Source: an uncultured Clostridiaceae bacterium
GTDB lineage: Bacteria; Bacillota; Clostridia; TANB77; CAG-465
Reading direction: 5' to 3'
NCBI GenBank assembly: GCA_964371585.1
Contig: CAYJMD010000006.1
Location: 12,831 to 20,149 of the forward strand
Length of the DNA: 7,319 nt
In this document: positions 2-7,319 of the stretch, one piece after another
Layout of the letters: each line of letters begins with the position of its first letter
How positions within the stretch are numbered: the stretch's first letter is position 1
Translations under genes and position numbers: made by a program
The notes under the pieces: generated by a model
Seen by the model: only the letters and a program-made list of their open reading frames with translations
Databases searched by the model: none
Told to the model about the DNA's origin: nothing

Positions 2-1441
2 TTACAACCTGAAACAAGAAAGAATGAAATGTTTTCTTCTTTCATAGATAAAGGTTTAGAAGATTTATGTGTGTCTAGAACTACATTTACTTGGGGAATT
101 CCAGTAGACTTTGATACAAAACATGTAGTATATGTTTGGATTGATGCATTATCAAATTATATTTCAGCTTTAGGATATTTAACTGAAGATGATACGTTAT
201 TTAAAAAGTATTGGCCAGCAGATATACATTTAGTAGGTAAAGAAATAACAAGATTCCATAGTATAATATGGCCAGCACTACTTATGGCTTTAGACCTTCC
301 ACTTCCTAAAAAGGTATTTGGACATGGATGGCTTGTGGTAGGAGGTAAAAAGATTTCTAAATCTTTTGGAAACTACAAAGATCCAAGAGAATATATTAAA
401 TATTCTAGTGTAGATGCTTTAAGATACTATTTATTAAAAGAAGTTAAATTAGGACTTGATGGTAACTTTGATGAAGAGATGTATATTCAAAGAATCAACT
501 CAGACTTATCAAATGACTTAGGTAATTTAGTAAGTAGAACAATTTCAATGACAGAAAAATATAATGAAGGAGTACTACTTAAAAGTGTATTTGAAAATCT
601 TCCACATACAGATGTAGATACAAATATGATTAATCTGGTAAAAGAAAATATAGACGAATATATAAAACATATGGAAATGAGTAGACCAGATTTAGCTGTA
701 GATAAGGCTATGAATATAATTTCAAATTCAAATAAATACATTGACTTAAATGAGCCTTGGAAGCTTGCTAAAGATGAAGAAAATAAAGATAGATTAAATA
801 AAGTGTTATATATATTAAGTGAGAATATAAGAATTAGTGCTGTTATGTTAAAACCGTATTTAATTGATGCACCAAATAAAATATTATCACAACTAGGAAT
901 TAATCTAGAAGATGAAAACCTTACAATGTTATCAAGCTTAAATAAATATGGAGCTATAGATGATAATACAATTTGTAAGAAAACAGAAAATCTATTCCCA
1001 AGAATAGATAGTAAAGAAGTTTTAGAAAAGGAAGAAAAAATGGAAAATAAAGAAAATGAAGTAAAGAAAGAAGTTGTAGAAAATGCAGCTAAAGTAGAAG
1101 AAGTAAATGAAAAAGGATATATCACAATTGATGACTTATCTAAAGTTGAACTTAAAGTAGGTCAAATAAAAACTGTTGATAGAGTGGAAAAAGCAGATAA
1201 ATTATATAAACTATCGGTAGATGTTGGAGAAGATGAATTAAGAACAATAGTATCAGGTATCGTACCATATTATACCGAAGAAGAACTACTAAACAAACAA
1301 ATAGTTGTTGTAACTAATTTAAAACCAGTTAAACTAAGAGGGATATTATCAAATGGTATGTTACTAGCTGCTGGTGATTCAGATGTTGTTAGTTTATTAA
1401 CTATTGATAAGGCTATAGCAAATGGTGAAAATATTCACTAA
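2..1441 (+). CDS. metG: Methionine--tRNA ligase (MetRS), C-terminal ~480 aa; the 5' end lies upstream of the window
   Basis: The frame is open from base 2 (LQPETRKNE precedes the first ATG at 29), so the ORF-track start at 29 is a truncation artefact. The class I KMSKS loop is present as KISKS (GGKKISKSFGN). A K/E-rich linker is followed by a C-terminal Trbp111/EMAPII-type tRNA-binding OB domain (KVGQIKTVDRVEKADKLYKLSVDVG...SNGMLLAA). Stop TAA 1439-1441. Confidence 0.93.
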   Translation, partial: LQPETRKNEMFSSFIDKGLEDLCVSRTTFTWGIPVDFDTKHVVYVWIDALSNYISALGYLTEDDTLFKKYWPADIHLVGKEITRFHSIIWPALLMALDLPLPKKVFGHGWLVVGGKKISKSFGNYKDPREYIKYSSVDALRYYLLKEVKLGLDGNFDEEMYIQRINSDLSNDLGNLVSRTISMTEKYNEGVLLKSVFENLPHTDVDTNMINLVKENIDEYIKHMEMSRPDLAVDKAMNIISNSNKYIDLNEPWKLAKDEENKDRLNKVLYILSENIRISAVMLKPYLIDAPNKILSQLGINLEDENLTMLSSLNKYGAIDDNTICKKTENLFPRIDSKEVLEKEEKMENKENEVKKEVVENAAKVEEVNEKGYITIDDLSKVELKVGQIKTVDRVEKADKLYKLSVDVGEDELRTIVSGIVPYYTEEELLNKQIVVVTNLKPVKLRGILSNGMLLAAGDSDVVSLLTIDKAIANGENIH

Positions 1442-1453
1442 GGGGGATATACA

Positions 1454-2110
1454 TTGAAAACTAAAGAGGGCAGATTAAAAATATATAAAGAGTTAGTAGA
1501 ATGGGCTGTTTGCATAATAGTTGCATTTATAATTTATTTATTTATAAACTATTTTATTGGAACAATTTCAGGTGTTAAACAAGTATCAATGACACCTACT
1601 GCTGTTGAAGGAGAAAGAGTATATATATCAAGAACTATATTCTTTCAAAAAGAATTAGTTAGAGGAGATATAGTTACATTTTCTTCTCCAGCAGGTTTAA
1701 ATGATATGGATACAGAACCTTCAGAGTTTACTCTTACAGGAGATAATGCAATTGCTTCGTTTGAAGACCTTAACTTTGGAGAAGCTTTTGTACATGATTT
1801 TTTAGGAATCAATAAAGTAAGTTATATTAAAAGAGTAATTGGAGTTGCTTCAGATCATGTATATATTGATGAAGATGGTAATGTATTTGTTAATGATGTA
1901 AAACTTGAGGAAAACTATTTAAACGATGGAACAACAAATAGAAATGGTAAGTATATTGATGTAATCGTTCCAGAAGGAAGTGTTTTCGTTATGGGAGACA
2001 ATAGGTTACATAGTATGGATTCAAGATATTTCGGTTGTGTTCCTCTAGAAGAAATAGAAGGATATGTTGAAGCAAAAGTTTGGCCACTTGATAAGATAGG
2101 ACCACTTTAA
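1454..2110 (+). CDS. lepB: Signal peptidase I (S26 family)
   Basis: TTG start sits 7 nt after a GGGGG Shine-Dalgarno (1442-1446). There is an N-terminal TM helix. The catalytic Ser box is VSMTPTA, followed by RGDIVTF. The catalytic Lys box is YIKRVIG and box E is GDNRLHSMDSRYFG. It begins 12 nt after the metG stop. Confidence 0.9.
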   Translation: MKTKEGRLKIYKELVEWAVCIIVAFIIYLFINYFIGTISGVKQVSMTPTAVEGERVYISRTIFFQKELVRGDIVTFSSPAGLNDMDTEPSEFTLTGDNAIASFEDLNFGEAFVHDFLGINKVSYIKRVIGVASDHVYIDEDGNVFVNDVKLEENYLNDGTTNRNGKYIDVIVPEGSVFVMGDNRLHSMDSRYFGCVPLEEIEGYVEAKVWPLDKIGPL

Positions 2111-2126
2111 GATAGGAGGCAAAGAT

Positions 2127-2963
2127 ATGTTTGAAAACATTATAGGACATAAAGAAGAAATCAATTATTTAATAAACGAACTGAATAATGATACTGTTTC
2201 TCATTCATATCTATTCTTAGGTAAATCTGGAATTGGCAAAAAACTTATAGCTAAAGAATTTGCCAAACAAATATTAAAAGTAAATGATCTAGAGACTTGT
2301 ATAGATTTTAATCTTATTCGAAAAAAAGATGATAAAAAACAAATAGTTGTAGAACAAGTAAGAGATGAAATTTTAAAAGATATCTATATAAAACCGATAT
2401 CTTGTGAAAAAAAACTATATGTAATTGATGAATTTGAAAATTTAAATGTAGCATCCCAAAATGCACTTTTAAAAATACTAGAAGAGCCACCAAAACATGT
2501 ATGTTTTATTATTATTGCATCAACTGAATCTAGTATTCTTGCTACAATATTATCAAGAGTGTCTAAAATTACATTTAGTAGTTTAAGTGATGATGAAATA
2601 AAGTTATATGTGAATAAGAATAATAAAATAGTCACAGATAATGTAATAGAATTTTCAGAAGGTTCAATAGGTGTAATAAACAGTATAATTGGTGATGGAT
2701 ATATAGAAATATTTGAAAATGTAGAAAGATTAACTAATACTATATTAGCTAGTAATTATATTGAATCATATAAAAGTATATCACAAATTAATTTTAATGA
2801 TGAACATATTTTTGACTATTTAATGTATATGCTTAGTAAAAATAATCAATATTTATGCATTAACATAGTTCAAAGATATAAAAACATGTTGCATAATAAT
2901 GGTAATTATGATATTGTAGTAGATAATATGCTACTAAAGTTAATTGAAAGTATTAACAAATAG
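2127..2963 (+). CDS. holB: DNA polymerase III subunit delta' (clamp-loader AAA+ subunit)
   Basis: GGAGG (2115-2119) lies 7 nt before the ATG. Degenerate Walker A is GKSGIGKK. Other motifs are the clamp-loader NALLKILEEPP motif, the sensor ILSRV motif, and DEFENL (Walker B-like). At 278 aa it is short for the family. It sits immediately upstream of a yaaT/ricT homolog, as in Bacillus. Confidence 0.85.
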   Translation: MFENIIGHKEEINYLINELNNDTVSHSYLFLGKSGIGKKLIAKEFAKQILKVNDLETCIDFNLIRKKDDKKQIVVEQVRDEILKDIYIKPISCEKKLYVIDEFENLNVASQNALLKILEEPPKHVCFIIIASTESSILATILSRVSKITFSSLSDDEIKLYVNKNNKIVTDNVIEFSEGSIGVINSIIGDGYIEIFENVERLTNTILASNYIESYKSISQINFNDEHIFDYLMYMLSKNNQYLCINIVQRYKNMLHNNGNYDIVVDNMLLKLIESINK

Positions 2964-2974
2964 AAGGAGAACAT

Positions 2975-3793
2975 ATGGATAATAATGTTTTAGGAATTAG
3001 ATTTAGAAGAACAGGTAAAATGGTATATATGCTTCCTTGTCAAGAAGATCTTAAAGTAGGAGATAAAGTAATTGCTGAAAGTGAAAAAGGTAAGGAAATA
3101 GGAAGAATTGTAAAAATACTTACTAAAGATGAAGTGAAAACAGAGGAACCATTAAATAAAATAATAAAAAAAGCTACAATTGAAGATGATGAAAAACAAA
3201 AACAAAATGTTAAAGAAGCTGAAAAAGTTTTAGAATTTACAAGAAAAGAATTGAAAAATTTACAACTTAACATGAAATTATTATTTTGTGAATATACATT
3301 TGATAAAGGTAAACTTACAATATACTTTACATCTGATGAAAGAGTAGATTTTAGAGAACTTGTAAAAACACTAGCTACAAGATATAAAACAAGAATAGAA
3401 CTTAGACAAATCGGCCCGAGAGATGAAGTTAAAGCCTATTCTAATTTAGGAATGTGTGGAAGAGAAGTTTGTTGTAGAACTTATCTACAAGATTTTAAAT
3501 CTGTAACTATTAAAGATGCGAAAGAACAAGGACTACAAATAAATATGAGTAAACTTTCAGGTGGATGTGGTAGACTTATGTGTTGTTTAAAATATGAAGA
3601 AGAGACATATAGAGATAACTCAAAAAAATTACCCAAAGTAAATGAAATTGTTAGTGTTAGAGAATCTGGTGAAGTAGGAAAAGTTATAGGTATTGATATA
3701 CTTAATTTAAAAGTTAAAGTTAAATTAGGTGATACAAGAGAAAATGAAAGTATAGTTAATTTTAAATTAGATGAATTAATTATTGATAATTAA
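2975..3793 (+). CDS. ricT: PSP1-domain protein RicT/YaaT (stage 0 sporulation / RNase Y maturation accessory protein family)
   Basis: AAGGAGA (2964-2970) precedes the ATG. It has the characteristic PSP1 C-terminal block RIELRQIGPRDEVKAYSNLGMCGREVCCRTYLQDF...LSGGCGRLMCCLKYEEETY with paired Cys-Cys motifs. It holds the conserved position after holB. Confidence 0.88.
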   Translation: MDNNVLGIRFRRTGKMVYMLPCQEDLKVGDKVIAESEKGKEIGRIVKILTKDEVKTEEPLNKIIKKATIEDDEKQKQNVKEAEKVLEFTRKELKNLQLNMKLLFCEYTFDKGKLTIYFTSDERVDFRELVKTLATRYKTRIELRQIGPRDEVKAYSNLGMCGREVCCRTYLQDFKSVTIKDAKEQGLQINMSKLSGGCGRLMCCLKYEEETYRDNSKKLPKVNEIVSVRESGEVGKVIGIDILNLKVKVKLGDTRENESIVNFKLDELIIDN

Positions 3794-3796
3794 TAG

Positions 3797-3982
<186 letters not shown>

Positions 3983-3987
3983 AAATG

Positions 3988-4036
3988 AACCTTTAAGAGT
4001 ATAGAGAATATACTTTCTTAAAGGTTTATTTTTTTA
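3988..4036. terminator. Bidirectional rho-independent terminator between the convergent fdx and pyruvyl transferase genes
   Basis: AACCTTTAAGA (3988-3998) pairs perfectly with TCTTAAAGGTT (4016-4026). An inner helix GTATA (3999-4003) / TATAC (4009-4013) has a GAGAA loop. On the + strand a T-tract TTTATTTTTTT (4025-4035) follows. On the - strand the same hairpin is followed by CATTTTT (complement of 3981-3987). The T-tract overlaps the stop codon of the - strand gene. Confidence 0.85.
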
Positions 4037-5083
4037 TTTAATTAATTTATTAAATGAGTTAAAATGTTTTGCAGAGTCCTTTGATAATGAATTTATAATT
4101 TCAGAATTAGTTTCTTGATATGAATTTATATCTAATAAATCATCACTTGTAATATTTTCTAAATTAATATATGAACTAGTTATTTTAGTATCATTTACTA
4201 CAGTAAGAAGTTTATTGCTATATGATAGTACTATAAATTTATGTCCAAGCTTACTTGATAGTATCATAGAATGAAATCTAGAACATATCATAAACTCCAT
4301 TTTTGAATAGATATTCATAAAATCATCTAAAGAAGAATTATAATCTACAATGTTTATTTTAGCAGAATAGCTGTCTGGTAAAATCTCTATAAGATTATTA
4401 CAAGCCTCTACATCACCTTCTGCATCACAAAATGGAAATAAATATATAGAATAACCATCATCTATGTATTTTTTTATATTGTTTGCTAAACACTTTAAAT
4501 AATCTTTAGTAACATGTTGTAAATTGGATTTTTTCTTTAAATCTATCATTGAAATTCCTATTGATTTTTTTATTGTCTCAGTGTCATTAATATCTAAACC
4601 AAATACAATATCCGGTGCTAGTGATACATTATTTAAATCGCTGAATATATCAAAAGAATATTTATCTCTAAAACAAGTATGAGTTACTGTTTTTAGTACA
4701 TTTCTTGTTAAATTTAAGTATTCTTCAGTTTTGTATGGACCGAAGTTTGTTCCCATATAGAAAAAAGGAACATTCAAAGCTTTAGCTTCTTTAACAAAAT
4801 CATATAAAGTTTGTAATCTATTTATAGAATTTGGAGCTTCAATGAATAGTGATCCACCAATATATATGATTGAATCATAATTTTGTATAATACTTGTATC
4901 AAAAACAAATTTTTTGTTTATAATAGTTAAGTTAGTTATATTATTAATAGCAAAAGCATCATCTATATTTTCTACATAAATAGAAAAATTAATATTAGGA
5001 TACTTTTTAGTAATCATAGAAATGAATAAATCATCGCCTACATTTGCTTTAGTATATGCAATTAAAAGAACATTTTTTATCAA
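4034..5083 (-). CDS. Polysaccharide pyruvyl transferase family protein (PS_pyruv_trans / CsaB-WcaK-like)
   Basis: N-terminal motif is LLIAYTKANVGDDLF (the family NxGD[DE] motif). Mid motif is IIYIGGSLF. C-terminal motif is ICSRFHSMILSSKLGHKFIVLSYSNKL (the family R[LF]H motif followed by a Y/S-x-x-K block). I moved the start from the ORF-track 5098 to the TTG at 5083. The codons at 5098-5090 (TTG GAG GCG) themselves contain GGAGG (5096-5092), which sits 8 nt before the in-frame TTG at 5083. Confidence 0.75.
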   Translation of the reverse strand: MIKNVLLIAYTKANVGDDLFISMITKKYPNINFSIYVENIDDAFAINNITNLTIINKKFVFDTSIIQNYDSIIYIGGSLFIEAPNSINRLQTLYDFVKEAKALNVPFFYMGTNFGPYKTEEYLNLTRNVLKTVTHTCFRDKYSFDIFSDLNNVSLAPDIVFGLDINDTETIKKSIGISMIDLKKKSNLQHVTKDYLKCLANNIKKYIDDGYSIYLFPFCDAEGDVEACNNLIEILPDSYSAKINIVDYNSSLDDFMNIYSKMEFMICSRFHSMILSSKLGHKFIVLSYSNKLLTVVNDTKITSSYINLENITSDDLLDINSYQETNSEIINSLSKDSAKHFNSFNKLIK

Positions 5084-5103
5084 AATAATCGCCTCCAAAC
5101 CAT

Positions 5104-5194: not shown

Positions 5195-5395
5195 TTACTC
5201 GAAGTCAAACCCATCAGCAATATCATTAAAAAATGATGAGCTTCCAAATAGGTTGTCATTGTTGCTAAATTCAGACATTGGTAATTCTGATTGGGCTGCA
5301 TTTTGGAAAATGTTTCCAATAATGTCCATAGTTAATACCACGGCTAAAATAGAAATCAGAAGGATAATTGTTGTTGTAATAATTGCTTTTTTCAT
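5195..5395 (-). CDS. Small (66 aa) N-terminally anchored or secreted protein; minimal member of the cassette array
   Basis: It is preceded by the conserved leader, with GGAGG 7 nt before the ATG. It starts MKK plus a hydrophobic helix (AIITTTIILLISILAVVL) followed by TMD, as in the two larger paralogs (ETMDQ). The tail is acidic and S/F/N/D-rich. It has its own promoter and terminator. Two overlapping ORF-track entries were rejected in its favour. Confidence 0.6.
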   Translation of the reverse strand: MKKAIITTTIILLISILAVVLTMDIIGNIFQNAAQSELPMSEFSNNDNLFGSSSFFNDIADGFDFE

Positions 5396-5482
5396 TGTAA
5401 TACCTCCAAGTATTAAAAAAATTTTGTTGATACAAATCTCTAATCTTTATCAATTGTTAAAGATTTATATATATGTTTTTCA
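5396..5482 (-). promoter_or_regulatory. Conserved 5' leader, copy A (5387-5465 is identical to 7237-7315)
   Basis: The mRNA-sense core is AATCTTTAACAATTGATAAAGATTAGAGATTTGTATCAACAAAATTTTTTTAATACTTGGAGGTATTACA-ATG. It contains a 24-nt near-palindrome (5442-5465) and the SD. The upper boundary is the transcription start predicted about 7 nt downstream of the -10 box. Confidence 0.7.
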
Positions 5483-5488
5483 CTATTA

Positions 5489-5517
5489 ATTATACCATAT
5501 TTTAAACATTATGTCAA
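5489..5517 (-). promoter_or_regulatory. Consensus sigma-A promoter of the 66-aa cassette
   Basis: The - strand reads TTGACA (5517-5512), a 17-nt spacer, then TGgTATAAT (-10 at 5494-5489). Both hexamers are perfect and an extended -10 TG is present. Confidence 0.8.
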
Positions 5518-5537
5518 CTATCATGAGATTTGTTGAA

Positions 5538-5572
5538 CAAATAAAAACACCCTAATCAATTGATTAGAGTGT
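5538..5572 (-). terminator. Rho-independent terminator of the 262-aa gene (cassette terminator copy 2)
   Basis: The - strand RNA folds as ACACUCUAAUC-AAUU-GAUUAGGGUGU (11 bp including one G.U) followed by UUUUUAUUU. It starts 7 nt after the stop codon (5579-5581). The 40-nt block 5538-5577 is identical to 6510-6549. Confidence 0.85.
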
Positions 5573-5578
5573 TTAATT

Positions 5579-6367
5579 TTATCCAAAATTAACATTGTCA
5601 TCTGCATAAAGCAAATCCTCAGTTGGTTCTGGTTTTGGTTCTGGAGTTGGTTTAGAACTAGATTCAGGTTTAGGACTTGGACTTAAAAATTCGTCAATAA
5701 CTTCATCTAGAGTAGTATTTGAATTATTTGTTCCAAAGAATACATCATTCCACTGTTCAACAGTTTTAATGTCTTCAATGATAAGAGTCCATATATATTT
5801 TGGATCACCATCAAAAACATATTCATCCTCTGGTACTAATGATTCAATACAATCAGTACGTACAAAGCCTAAATATTTACCTGAGTCATCACGTTCAGCA
5901 ATGTAGTACTGATCTTTACCTTCGTGGTAGACCCTGTATACTTTGTGAGTAATCTCTCTAGATGGATTACAAGTGCTACAATATTCAGAGCTAGAGCCTA
6001 TGTGAACACAAGAGATTACAGCTGACTCCATTTCTGCTAAAAAAATTTCTTGCTCAAATGGAATTTCTGGTTCGGGTTCGGGTTTTGGAGTTGCGTCAGT
6101 ATATTTTTCTATTTCTATAGGATCCTTTATAGAATGAACACAAGGGCCTGAAGAAGATTCATAACTATAAAAGTTTTCTGTATATGGATCTATGTTAATA
6201 GCATCTAACGCTAAAGCTTCATTAGATTGATCTATGTTAATAGTACCTAACTCTAAAGCTTCATTAGATTGATCCATTGTTTCAATTGGTGTAGTTCCCA
6301 ATAAGTAGCCCGTACCAAATGATGCGATTAGTGATAGTGCGATTGTTAATGTAGTAAGTTTTTTCAT
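5579..6367 (-). CDS. Signal-anchored or secreted protein, 262 aa, paralog of 6595-7245 (unrecognised family)
   Basis: GGAGG lies 7 nt before the ATG. It starts MKKLTT plus a hydrophobic helix, then the juxtamembrane motif GTTPIETMDQSNEALE. A 14-aa tandem repeat and PKPEPEPE / PTPEPKPEP linkers follow. It carries the Cys motif CVHIGSSSEYCSTCNP. The C-terminal domain YRVYHEGKDQYYIAE...SLVPEDEYVF...PKYIWTLIIEDI...WN...SNTTLDEVIDEFL is shared with the next gene. Confidence 0.85.
   Translation of the reverse strand: MKKLTTLTIALSLIASFGTGYLLGTTPIETMDQSNEALELGTINIDQSNEALALDAINIDPYTENFYSYESSSGPCVHSIKDPIEIEKYTDATPKPEPEPEIPFEQEIFLAEMESAVISCVHIGSSSEYCSTCNPSREITHKVYRVYHEGKDQYYIAERDDSGKYLGFVRTDCIESLVPEDEYVFDGDPKYIWTLIIEDIKTVEQWNDVFFGTNNSNTTLDEVIDEFLSPSPKPESSSKPTPEPKPEPTEDLLYADDNVNFG
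6187..6274 (-). repeat. In-frame 42-nt tandem duplication (two units) inside the 262-aa gene
   Basis: Unit 6189-6230 differs from unit 6231-6272 at 3 of 42 positions. They encode DQSNEALELGTINI and DQSNEALALDAINI. Confidence 0.9.
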
Positions 6368-6455
6368 TGTAATACCTCCAAGTATTAAAAAAAATTTTGT
6401 TGATACAAATCTCTAATCTTTATCAATTGTTAAAGATTCATATATTTAATGTACA
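6368..6455 (-). promoter_or_regulatory. Conserved 5' leader, copy B
   Basis: 6349-6443 matches 7227-7319 except for one extra A in the homopolymer run (A8 at 6387-6394, versus A7 in copies A and C). The near-palindrome is at 6415-6438. Confidence 0.7.
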
Positions 6456-6461
6456 ATATTA

Positions 6462-6490
6462 ATTATATCACATTTAATGTGTTATGTCAA
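6462..6490 (-). promoter_or_regulatory. Consensus sigma-A promoter of the 262-aa cassette
   Basis: The - strand reads TTGACA (6490-6485), a 17-nt spacer, then TGaTATAAT (-10 at 6467-6462). Both hexamers are perfect and an extended -10 TG is present. The hexamers are conserved with copy A while the spacer and flanks have diverged. Confidence 0.8.
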
Positions 6491-6510
6491 CTAGTTTGGT
6501 AGAGTTTTGC

Positions 6511-6544
6511 AAATAAAAACACCCTAATCAATTGATTAGAGTGT
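6511..6544 (-). terminator. Rho-independent terminator of the 216-aa gene (cassette terminator copy 3)
   Basis: It has the same hairpin and U-tract as 5538-5572 (40 nt identical). It lies about 50 nt downstream of the stop at 6595. Confidence 0.8.
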
Positions 6545-6594
6545 TTAATGTTTAAGTTTAAAATTTATCTTGTATAAGCTAATTCTTTAAACAG

Positions 6595-7245
6595 TTATAG
6601 GTTTGGTTTTTCATTTGAAATTGAAACTGACAGAGGATCAATTATATTATCCAAAGTCAAAAAATGTTCAATGATTTCGTCTAATGTGTTATTTGAACCA
6701 TTCTTACCATTAAATTCACTATTCCATTTTTCGATAGTGATAATGTCTTTAATAATATATGTCCATGAGTATTTTGGATTACTATTAAAAACATAGTCTT
6801 CTTCTGGAACTAATGAATAAAAAAGACCATTAAACTCTAAAGGTCGCATTGAATCACTATATTCTGCAATATAATACTTGTCTTCACCTTCATGGTAAAG
6901 TCTATATAGCTTGCAAGTAATTTCTTTAGGTGAATTGTGTTCTAGGTAATCTTCATCACTATCACTTACATGTAGAGATTCAGAAAGAAACGGATCCACT
7001 TGAGGTTTTGGATTGCATTCTTTGCAATCATCAGAGCTCTCACCTATATGCATACAGTCATCAAGATAAAGATTTGATGTAGGTGTAGATTCTAACTCGG
7101 GCTCTAAAGAGAGACTAATAGTGTTAAACTCTAAAGTTTTGTTTGTTTGGTCCATAGTTTCAAGTTGTGTGGTTCCCCATAAGCAAATAACTGCTAATAT
7201 GGAGACTGCGCAGAGGATGATCATTGATGTAGTAAGTTTTTTCAT
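6595..7245 (-). CDS. Signal-anchored or secreted protein, 216 aa, paralog of 5579-6367 (unrecognised family)
   Basis: It has the same SD and leader. It starts MKKLTT plus a hydrophobic helix, then GTTQLETMDQTNKTLE. It carries the Cys motif CMHIGESSDDCKECNP. The C-terminal domain is YRLYHEGEDKYYIAE...SLVPEEDYVF...PKYSWTYIIKDI...WN...SNNTLDEIIEHFL. Confidence 0.85.
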   Translation of the reverse strand: MKKLTTSMIILCAVSILAVICLWGTTQLETMDQTNKTLEFNTISLSLEPELESTPTSNLYLDDCMHIGESSDDCKECNPKPQVDPFLSESLHVSDSDEDYLEHNSPKEITCKLYRLYHEGEDKYYIAEYSDSMRPLEFNGLFYSLVPEEDYVFNSNPKYSWTYIIKDIITIEKWNSEFNGKNGSNNTLDEIIEHFLTLDNIIDPLSVSISNEKPNL

Positions 7246-7319
7246 TGTAATACCTCCAAGTATTAAAAAAATTTTGTTGATACAAATCTCTAATCTTTAT
7301 CAATTGTTAAAGATTCATA
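7246..7319 (-). promoter_or_regulatory. Conserved 5' leader, copy C (truncated by the window end; its promoter is off-window)
   Basis: 7237-7315 is identical to 5387-5465. The near-palindrome is at 7292-7315. Confidence 0.7.

Follow-up and report, generated by a model that had tools for sequence, protein, structure and literature searches.

The window analyzed here, a stretch of 7,319 nucleotides (nt) from an uncultured Clostridiaceae bacterium (contig CAYJMD010000006.1, positions 12,831 to 20,149 of the forward strand), carries on its minus strand two genes for acidic proteins of 262 and 216 amino acids (aa). The two proteins are paralogs without detectable relatives and share one architecture, in which an N-terminal hydrophobic leader, a conserved post-leader block, a variable spacer, a Cys/His motif, and a conserved C-terminal domain follow one another. 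We favor, at a probability of about one half, the reading that they are strongly expressed, Sec-exported or signal-anchored acidic envelope proteins, each with one metal-stabilized knuckle and a beta/alpha domain on a flexible spacer. In this proposal, a Sec-type leader with its N terminus inside the cell (N-in) would either be cleaved after an L-x-G that precedes TT or be retained as a signal anchor, and a variable acidic, Pro-rich spacer, probably disordered, would extend from the conserved segment behind the leader. A C-x-H-x7-C-x2-C knuckle would hold one structural metal ion, most likely zinc bound by three Cys and one His, and the domain of ~93 residues would be displayed outside the membrane on the spacer, where it would be a module of the envelope, for binding or for structure.

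The paralogy of the two proteins, which an earlier sequence-only reading of this DNA had proposed, was far beyond chance: BLASTP aligned them with 40% identity over 229 columns at an E value of 1e-46, and all the strings quoted in that reading were found in place. Identity between the paralogs was 58% over the 93 columns of the C-terminal block, and the C-terminal domain showed a ratio of nonsynonymous to synonymous substitution rates (dN/dS) of 0.29 at a synonymous divergence (dS) of about 1, indicating purifying selection. With their GGAGG sites, this dN/dS, and terminators of their own, both open reading frames (ORFs) are real genes. The family is known from two sequences on one contig of one genome, and its two members are best explained, from the alignment, as old, diverged paralogs that have been seen so far on this contig only.

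The same reading had assigned the shared domain to no recognizable family, and this was borne out across curated libraries, known structures, and exhaustive profile searching. No family threshold was reached in Pfam, NCBIfam, PHROGs, and PADLOC by the full-length proteins, or in Pfam by the domain alone; the best matches to curated families had E values of 0.015-0.7, far under the cut-offs, and lay in low-complexity or leader stretches. PDB sequences searched with phmmer and with a profile of the two proteins gave no match (best E value, 0.28). A profile built from both proteins was run exhaustively with hmmsearch against the 1.84 billion representatives to which about 15 billion predicted proteins had been clustered. 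It retrieved the two window proteins and two long proteins with tandem repeats, one of 2628 aa with 15 matched stretches and one of 760 aa with 7. As the scores of the tandem-repeat proteins were summed over 7-15 repeats, these were judged spurious. Each of the window proteins forms a singleton cluster in this collection, on one 79-kb contig. Word-indexed protein searches retrieved each paralog itself only; this type of search is insensitive here, having missed the other paralog even though both are in the collection and share several exact 5-residue words. Its negatives alone are therefore unreliable, and the exhaustive profile search was needed.

At the nucleotide level, tblastn, blastn, and motif regular expressions brought up only chance-level matches when run on the 80 closest species at their syntenic loci. 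Looking up four proteins of the window by exact sequence in the contig records produced no entry. When the back-translated proteins were scanned against metagenome and viral contigs, 0 matches were confirmed, a DNA pattern of the start region yielded 0 matches in genome contigs, and tblastn found no match in phage and plasmid collections. A search of the literature for comparable orphan secreted proteins of Clostridia found nothing relevant. Neither HMMER searches of Pfam nor Foldseek searches with AlphaFold models gave a confident match to a characterized family.

The Cys/His motif follows the pattern CxHIGxSSxxCxxCNP, with a ligand spacing of C-x-H-x7-C-x2-C. The intact motifs of the two proteins have 10 of 19 residues in common, a score that was reached by 0 of 20,000 shuffles. 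However, the colinear alignment of the paralogs put them at non-equivalent positions. The intact motif of the 262-aa protein aligned gap-free with the Cys-less SLHVSDSDEDYLEHNS of the 216-aa protein (p = 0.007), and SLHVSDSDEDYLEHNS in turn matched the intact motif 26 residues upstream of it in its own protein with a score of 30, which 0 of 20,000 shuffles equaled. Opposite the intact motif of the 216-aa protein stands, with weaker support, CVHSI...TPKPEPEP of the 262-aa protein (p 0.02-0.03; p 0.08 for the linker alignment). The simplest history that these alignments suggest would be that the ancestor had two motif copies in tandem and that these decayed reciprocally, each paralog keeping exactly one C-H-C-C unit. 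The sequence-only reading had described the motif as a block common to both proteins, plus an extra upstream CVHSI in the larger one. The motif was indeed present in both, but its intact copies were not positionally equivalent; CVHSI was likewise present, at residues 76-80, but is better read as a remnant of the second motif copy.

The three Cys of the motif are the only Cys conserved between the paralogs, together with one His, and ligand-type swaps were aligned near the motif (C133 to H103 and H141 to C111). Because three Cys make an odd number, a Cys3His metal site fits better than disulfides alone. The pattern of motif decay, the Cys conservation, and the ligand swaps are consistent with one candidate Zn(Cys3His) site per protein, the ligands of which match between the two intact copies in a family of two members, each of which has a decayed copy as well. 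Like zinc knuckles or ribbons, the motif offers four candidate ligands as two pairs, C-x-H and C-x2-C, 7 residues apart. Unlike them, it matched no zinc-finger profile, its first pair is C-x-H rather than C-x2-C, and it is predicted to be extracytoplasmic, its metal binding being putative.

We consider it rather unlikely that the Cys/His cluster is not a metal site but a disulfide-stapled loop, or a set of tolerated residues in a decaying repeat, with function residing in the C-terminal domain only. This would fit the complete decay of one motif copy in each paralog and the unequal distance from motif to domain (1 versus 27 residues), and the nonconserved C173 of the 262-aa protein and C111 of the 216-aa protein are possible disulfide partners for the odd third Cys. 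These extra Cys, however, lack conservation. Moreover, the 10 of 19 shared motif residues lie inside linkers that are otherwise unalignable, the spacers between the post-leader GTT block and the motif having 43% nt identity, which speaks for selection to keep a single C-H-C-C unit intact. Structural disulfides are also poorly suited to strict gut anaerobes, a matter of general knowledge that speaks against a stapled loop in such a setting.

Two known Cys/His proteins were tried for the motif and rejected. Zinc-binding anti-sigma (ZAS) factors have H-x3-C-x2-C in an N-terminal cytoplasmic position and a partner among the extracytoplasmic function (ECF) sigma factors, whereas the motif here is different and follows an N-terminal helix, and no sigma factor gene was found in the window. 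No anti-sigma family of Pfam passed for the window proteins; Sigma_reg_N reached an E value of 0.39, with only the 66-aa product of a neighboring gene described below. Heme attachment as in c-type cytochromes takes C-x2-C-H, and both motifs read C-x2-C-N-P.

The conserved C-terminal domain was modeled with AlphaFold from the two sequences as input, with mean predicted local distance difference test (pLDDT) scores of 45 and 43. The two models, both of low confidence, agree on secondary structure only. A modeled beta-hairpin of 9+9 residues spans KVYRVYHEG and QYYIAE, a strand spans YxWTxIIxD, and helices span TxExWN and TLDExIxxFL. The best Foldseek match in PDB had an E value of 1.6, in a fold test that the model pLDDT of 45 makes weak. 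The hairpin, with two Tyr 11 residues apart (KVY...YIA) and then a strand and helices, bears a superficial likeness to GIY-YIG nucleases, and a few GIY-YIG homing endonucleases were among the nonsignificant Foldseek matches. The paralogs differ from these nucleases in having no invariant Arg after the hairpin (the basic residue there is K in one paralog, R in the other, and one position away from where it is expected) and in being predicted to be extracellular. Membership was rejected, as hhalign gave a probability of 0.4% against a three-sequence profile (N-terminal domains of T4 SegF, SegA, and I-TevII) and Pfam gave no GIY-YIG match at E <= 10. No GIY-YIG gene was found in the related loci, where one had been sought to deepen the profile.

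Both proteins open with MKK (MKKLTT), followed by a hydrophobic stretch of 19-21 residues and then an acidic segment, and they share the post-leader consensus GTTxxETMDQxNxxLE. Under the positive-inside rule, most of each protein is expected to lie outside the membrane. The N-in leader that had been suggested before is supported by these features, on the basis of that rule and not of a predictor. The remainder of each protein is strongly acidic (net charges in Table 1), and no second hydrophobic segment was found, since Kyte-Doolittle windows above 1.6 occurred at the N terminus only in both proteins. A conserved L-x-G precedes TT at the leader end in both and could, as a candidate, be a signal peptidase I site.

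In the spacers, the PEPKPEP string already quoted from the sequence was confirmed. The 262-aa gene shows PEP-type periodicity of 6 and 12 nt at 5621-5653 and 6065-6084, which, with a recent 42-nt duplication (Table 1), indicates that linker lengths are still changing. Surface proteins of Gram-positive bacteria have Pro-rich, wall-spanning spacers with PEPK/KPEP-type repeats. The paralogs resemble them in combining a putative N-terminal Sec leader, acidic, Pro-rich, low-complexity spacers (TPKPEPEPE and PTPEPKPEPT), and a folded module that would stand away from the membrane. Unlike them, the paralogs showed no LPXTG, SLH, CWB2, LysM, or choline-binding module, their folded domain is without relatives, and any anchoring would fall to the N-terminal helix. 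Established modes of anchoring were rejected one after another. A lipoprotein does not fit a 262-aa leader that has no Cys, nor a 216-aa leader (...AVIC21L) that has Ile at -1, unlike the lipobox [LVI][ASTVI][GAS]C; a sortase-anchored protein does not fit C termini (...TEDLLYADDNVNFG and ...SISNEKPNL) without an LPXTG signal or a second hydrophobic segment; and an S-layer/SLH-anchored protein does not fit the lack of an SLH or CWB2 match in Pfam.

Several of these results weigh against the envelope reading with its metal-stabilized knuckle. At each motif position, one paralog or the other has lost its copy, so that any given copy is dispensable, and no homolog was found in which conservation of the Cys/His ligands could show. 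The AlphaFold models, at a pLDDT of 43-45, contain neither a confident tertiary fold nor a modeled metal site, and Foldseek returned nothing with an E value below 0.3 from PDB and BFVD. Neither protein has a wall-binding domain (SLH, CWB2, or LysM), an LPXTG motif, or a lipobox.

The expression signals of the two genes belong to a cassette which they share with a third, 66-aa gene, and the three genes make up three short transcription units. The 66-aa protein is unrelated to the pair except in leader style and found no match in the family-library scans. An intergenic unit of ~190 nt, composed of terminator, promoter, leader, and GGAGG, is repeated on the minus strand at 5396-5580, 6368-6552, and 7246-7319. 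The promoter of the 66-aa gene, like that of the 262-aa gene, is of the sigma-70 type and scores 12 of 12 with TTGACA, a 17-nt spacer, and a TG-extended TATAAT, and that of the 216-aa gene falls past the window end; the very strong expression signals named in the sequence-only reading were thus substantiated for the 262-aa and 66-aa genes. The leader of ~75 nt is almost 100% identical in all three genes, whereas promoter spacers and the stretches from terminator to -35 have diverged between cassettes and the coding dS is about 1, which points to very strong selection or local gene conversion on the leader. From the consensus promoter, conserved leader RNA, strong ribosome-binding site, and terminator, high and coregulated expression is predicted, that of the 66-aa cassette included, and the products may be abundant.

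The leader contains a 5'-proximal 14-bp hairpin (z-score, -2.9) and a weak hairpin over the GGAGG. Its 22/24 palindrome occurs at three sites only in the window, the three leaders, to which the near-palindrome TCTTTATCAATTGTTAAAGA (5444-5463, 6417-6436, and 7294-7313; 0.03 matches expected by chance) is likewise confined. TCTTTATCAATTGTTAAAGA has CAATTGAT in common with the terminator-hairpin loop, and the near-palindrome might serve a dimeric regulator as its operator or take part in alternative RNA hairpins. The 24-nt palindrome of the 5' untranslated region (5'UTR) had 0 matches in metagenome and viral contigs, and no Rfam family came above threshold for the leader. Yfr10, a cyanobacterial small RNA, scored 30.7 and 35.2 bits (gathering score, 43) at 5532-5586 and 6504-6562 of the minus strand, which are the terminator hairpins, and was dismissed as a chance match. 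Two listed minus-strand ORFs (5271-5453 and 7160-7303), which start with MIKIRDLYQQNFFNTWRYYNEK, were set aside as repeat artifacts; they are out-of-frame readings that begin within the repeated leader and continue into the 5' end of the gene that follows.

The window is AT-rich (GC content, 21-36%). Its plus strand holds a housekeeping block of metG (C-terminal part), the signal peptidase I gene lepB, holB, a PSP1/YaaT-like gene, and the small ferredoxin gene fdx. After the ferredoxin gene, the minus strand carries four genes, those for a polysaccharide pyruvyl transferase and for the 66-aa, 262-aa, and 216-aa proteins. The pyruvyl transferase adjoining the cassettes matches PF04230 of Pfam with an E value of 4e-37; at 93 bits against the CsaB cut-off of 213, it is no CsaB equivalog. 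The PSP1 protein had no closer match than one of 62-63% identity among 185,579 species representatives, and its matches were uncultured Clostridia metagenome-assembled genomes, several of which carry animal gut or rumen sample names. The order metG-lepB-holB-psp1-fdx is kept in the 26 closest loci, and conservation stops directly after fdx (window 3982-5100), where glycosyltransferase genes occupy the position that the pyruvyl transferase has in the window; pyruvyl transferase, cassette proteins, and cassette leader are absent from all 26. The end of synteny after fdx and the glycosyltransferases of the relatives assign the cassettes to a cell-envelope region that varies, in a lineage that has rarely been sampled.

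Highly expressed envelope genes, such as those for S-layer proteins, have consensus promoters and long, structured 5'UTRs that stabilize the mRNA. The cassettes resemble such genes in their perfect -35, extended -10, leader of ~85 nt with a 5' hairpin, GGAGG, and efficient terminator, and in the adjoining polysaccharide pyruvyl transferase gene. They differ in that the proteins are small (216-262 aa) and have no SLH, that the pyruvyl transferase falls short of the CsaB cut-off, and that the same leader precedes three cargo genes that are unrelated or have diverged.

GC content at third codon positions (GC3) is 0.19-0.30 in the cassette genes (5579-7245), compared with 0.08-0.13 in all six neighboring genes (29-5098), and could fit either high expression, through codon choice, or foreign origin. 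That the three cassettes came in by horizontal transfer, as accessory genes (morons) of a phage or other mobile element with products that modify the cell surface, for example by receptor masking or exclusion, and that are no native components of the envelope, appears quite improbable to us. In keeping with such an origin, the cassettes stand out in GC3 from the flanking housekeeping genes, lie at the synteny breakpoint, are absent from the 80 closest species loci, and are moron-like in being self-contained from promoter to terminator and in encoding orphan proteins. Neither the proteins nor the 5'UTR, however, gave a match among PHROGs, phages, plasmids, or viral contigs, no integrase, tRNA-type junction, or phage gene was found within the window, the paralog dS of about 1 is not that of a recent arrival, and a high GC3 may also come from the codon choice of highly expressed genes in AT-rich genomes.

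Least probable are cleaved effector or signaling proteins secreted into the medium, for example antagonistic or host-directed factors, with the 66-aa acidic peptide as a partner: the moderately hydrophobic 262-aa leader (Kyte-Doolittle, 1.48), the small residue in L-x-G as a possible signal peptidase I site, and the one type of expression unit common to all three cargo genes would suit them, but the 216-aa and 66-aa leaders are strongly hydrophobic (Kyte-Doolittle, 2.6) and more anchor-like, no likeness to toxin, bacteriocin, or immunity families or PADLOC models was seen, and transporter or processing genes were not found nearby.

Table 1. Positions in the window of the paralogous genes, their protein segments, and the cassette elements
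Feature	Position	Strand	Basis or properties
ORF of 262-aa acidic protein, predicted exported (paralog A)	5579..6367	-	GGAGG 7 nt 5' of ATG; net charge of mature part -34
ORF of 216-aa acidic protein, predicted exported (paralog B)	6595..7245	-	GGAGG 7 nt 5' of ATG; net charge of mature part -24
Intact motif CVHIGSSSEYCSTCNP, 262-aa protein, residues 120-135, immediately N-terminal to domain	5963..6010	-	C120, H122, C130, C133
Intact motif CMHIGESSDDCKECNP, 216-aa protein, residues 64-79, 27 residues ahead of domain	7009..7056	-	Motif comparison
Decayed motif copy SLHVSDSDEDYLEHNS, 216-aa protein, residues 90-105	6931..6978	-	C to S, C to Y, C to H; aligns with intact motif of 262-aa protein
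CVHSI, 262-aa protein, residues 76-80, probable remnant of distal copy (C-x-H kept, CxxC lost)	6128..6142	-	Opposite CMHIG of 216-aa protein; shuffle p 0.02-0.03
Conserved C-terminal domain, 262-aa protein, residues 137-229	5681..5959	-	dN/dS 0.29; predicted beta-hairpin, short strand, strand, helix, helix
Conserved C-terminal domain, 216-aa protein, residues 107-197	6655..6927	-	Paralog alignment, AlphaFold model
Leader of 262-aa protein, MKKLTTLTIALSLIASFGTGYLLGT, signal peptide or signal anchor	6293..6367	-	Maximum Kyte-Doolittle (19 residues) 1.48, signal-peptide-like; no lipobox
Leader of 216-aa protein, MKKLTTSMIILCAVSILAVICLWG, signal peptide or signal anchor	7174..7245	-	Maximum Kyte-Doolittle (19 residues) 2.58, anchor-like
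Conserved post-leader block GTTPIETMDQSNEALE, 262-aa protein	6251..6298	-	Paralog alignment
Conserved post-leader block GTTQLETMDQTNKTLE, 216-aa protein	7129..7176	-	Paralog alignment
In-frame 42-nt tandem duplication in 262-aa spacer, encoding DQSNEALxLxxINI twice	6187..6274	-	2.1 copies, 93% matches
Pro-rich tail PSPKPESSSKPTPEPKPEPTE, 262-aa protein	5618..5680	-	6- and 12-nt periodicity (Tandem Repeats Finder)
Promoter of 262-aa gene: TTGACA, 17-nt spacer, TG-extended TATAAT	6462..6490	-	12/12 consensus
Conserved 5'UTR of 262-aa gene with near-palindrome AATCTTTAACAATTGATAAAGATT, 5' hairpin, GGAGG-containing hairpin	6368..6444	-	Repeat and folding analysis
Same conserved 5'UTR, 216-aa gene	7246..7319	-	Repeat comparison
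Intrinsic terminator, 262-aa gene	5545..5574	-	13-bp stem
Intrinsic terminator, 216-aa gene, hairpin identical to that of 262-aa gene	6517..6546	-	13-bp stem
Gene of 66-aa protein, third cassette	5195..5395	-	MKK leader, very hydrophobic helix (Kyte-Doolittle 2.6), acidic tail without Lys or Arg, net charge -7

Lineages with sparse sampling commonly contain orphan exported proteins. We think it doubtful that the pair founds a new extracytoplasmic metal-binding domain family, made up of a Cys3His knuckle and a beta/alpha module, and that the ~75-nt leader with AATCTTTAACAATTGATAAAGATT is a new cis-regulatory element, RNA element or operator, for several unrelated exported cargo genes of this Clostridia lineage. 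What this analysis documents is a clean orphan family of two members, for which a candidate metal site is defined. The promoter-leader-terminator cassette, near-constant around divergent cargo, is perhaps the most reusable piece, both as a candidate regulatory element and, possibly, as a strong expression module for AT-rich Firmicutes. Practical value is limited today, and the reciprocal motif decay and the reused cassette are most worth following. If the envelope reading is true, the two proteins would be an envelope component that an uncultured Clostridia bacterium of gut type expresses strongly and that is, so far, unique to its lineage, and orphan surface proteins of such a kind shape encounters with phages, hosts, and neighbors.

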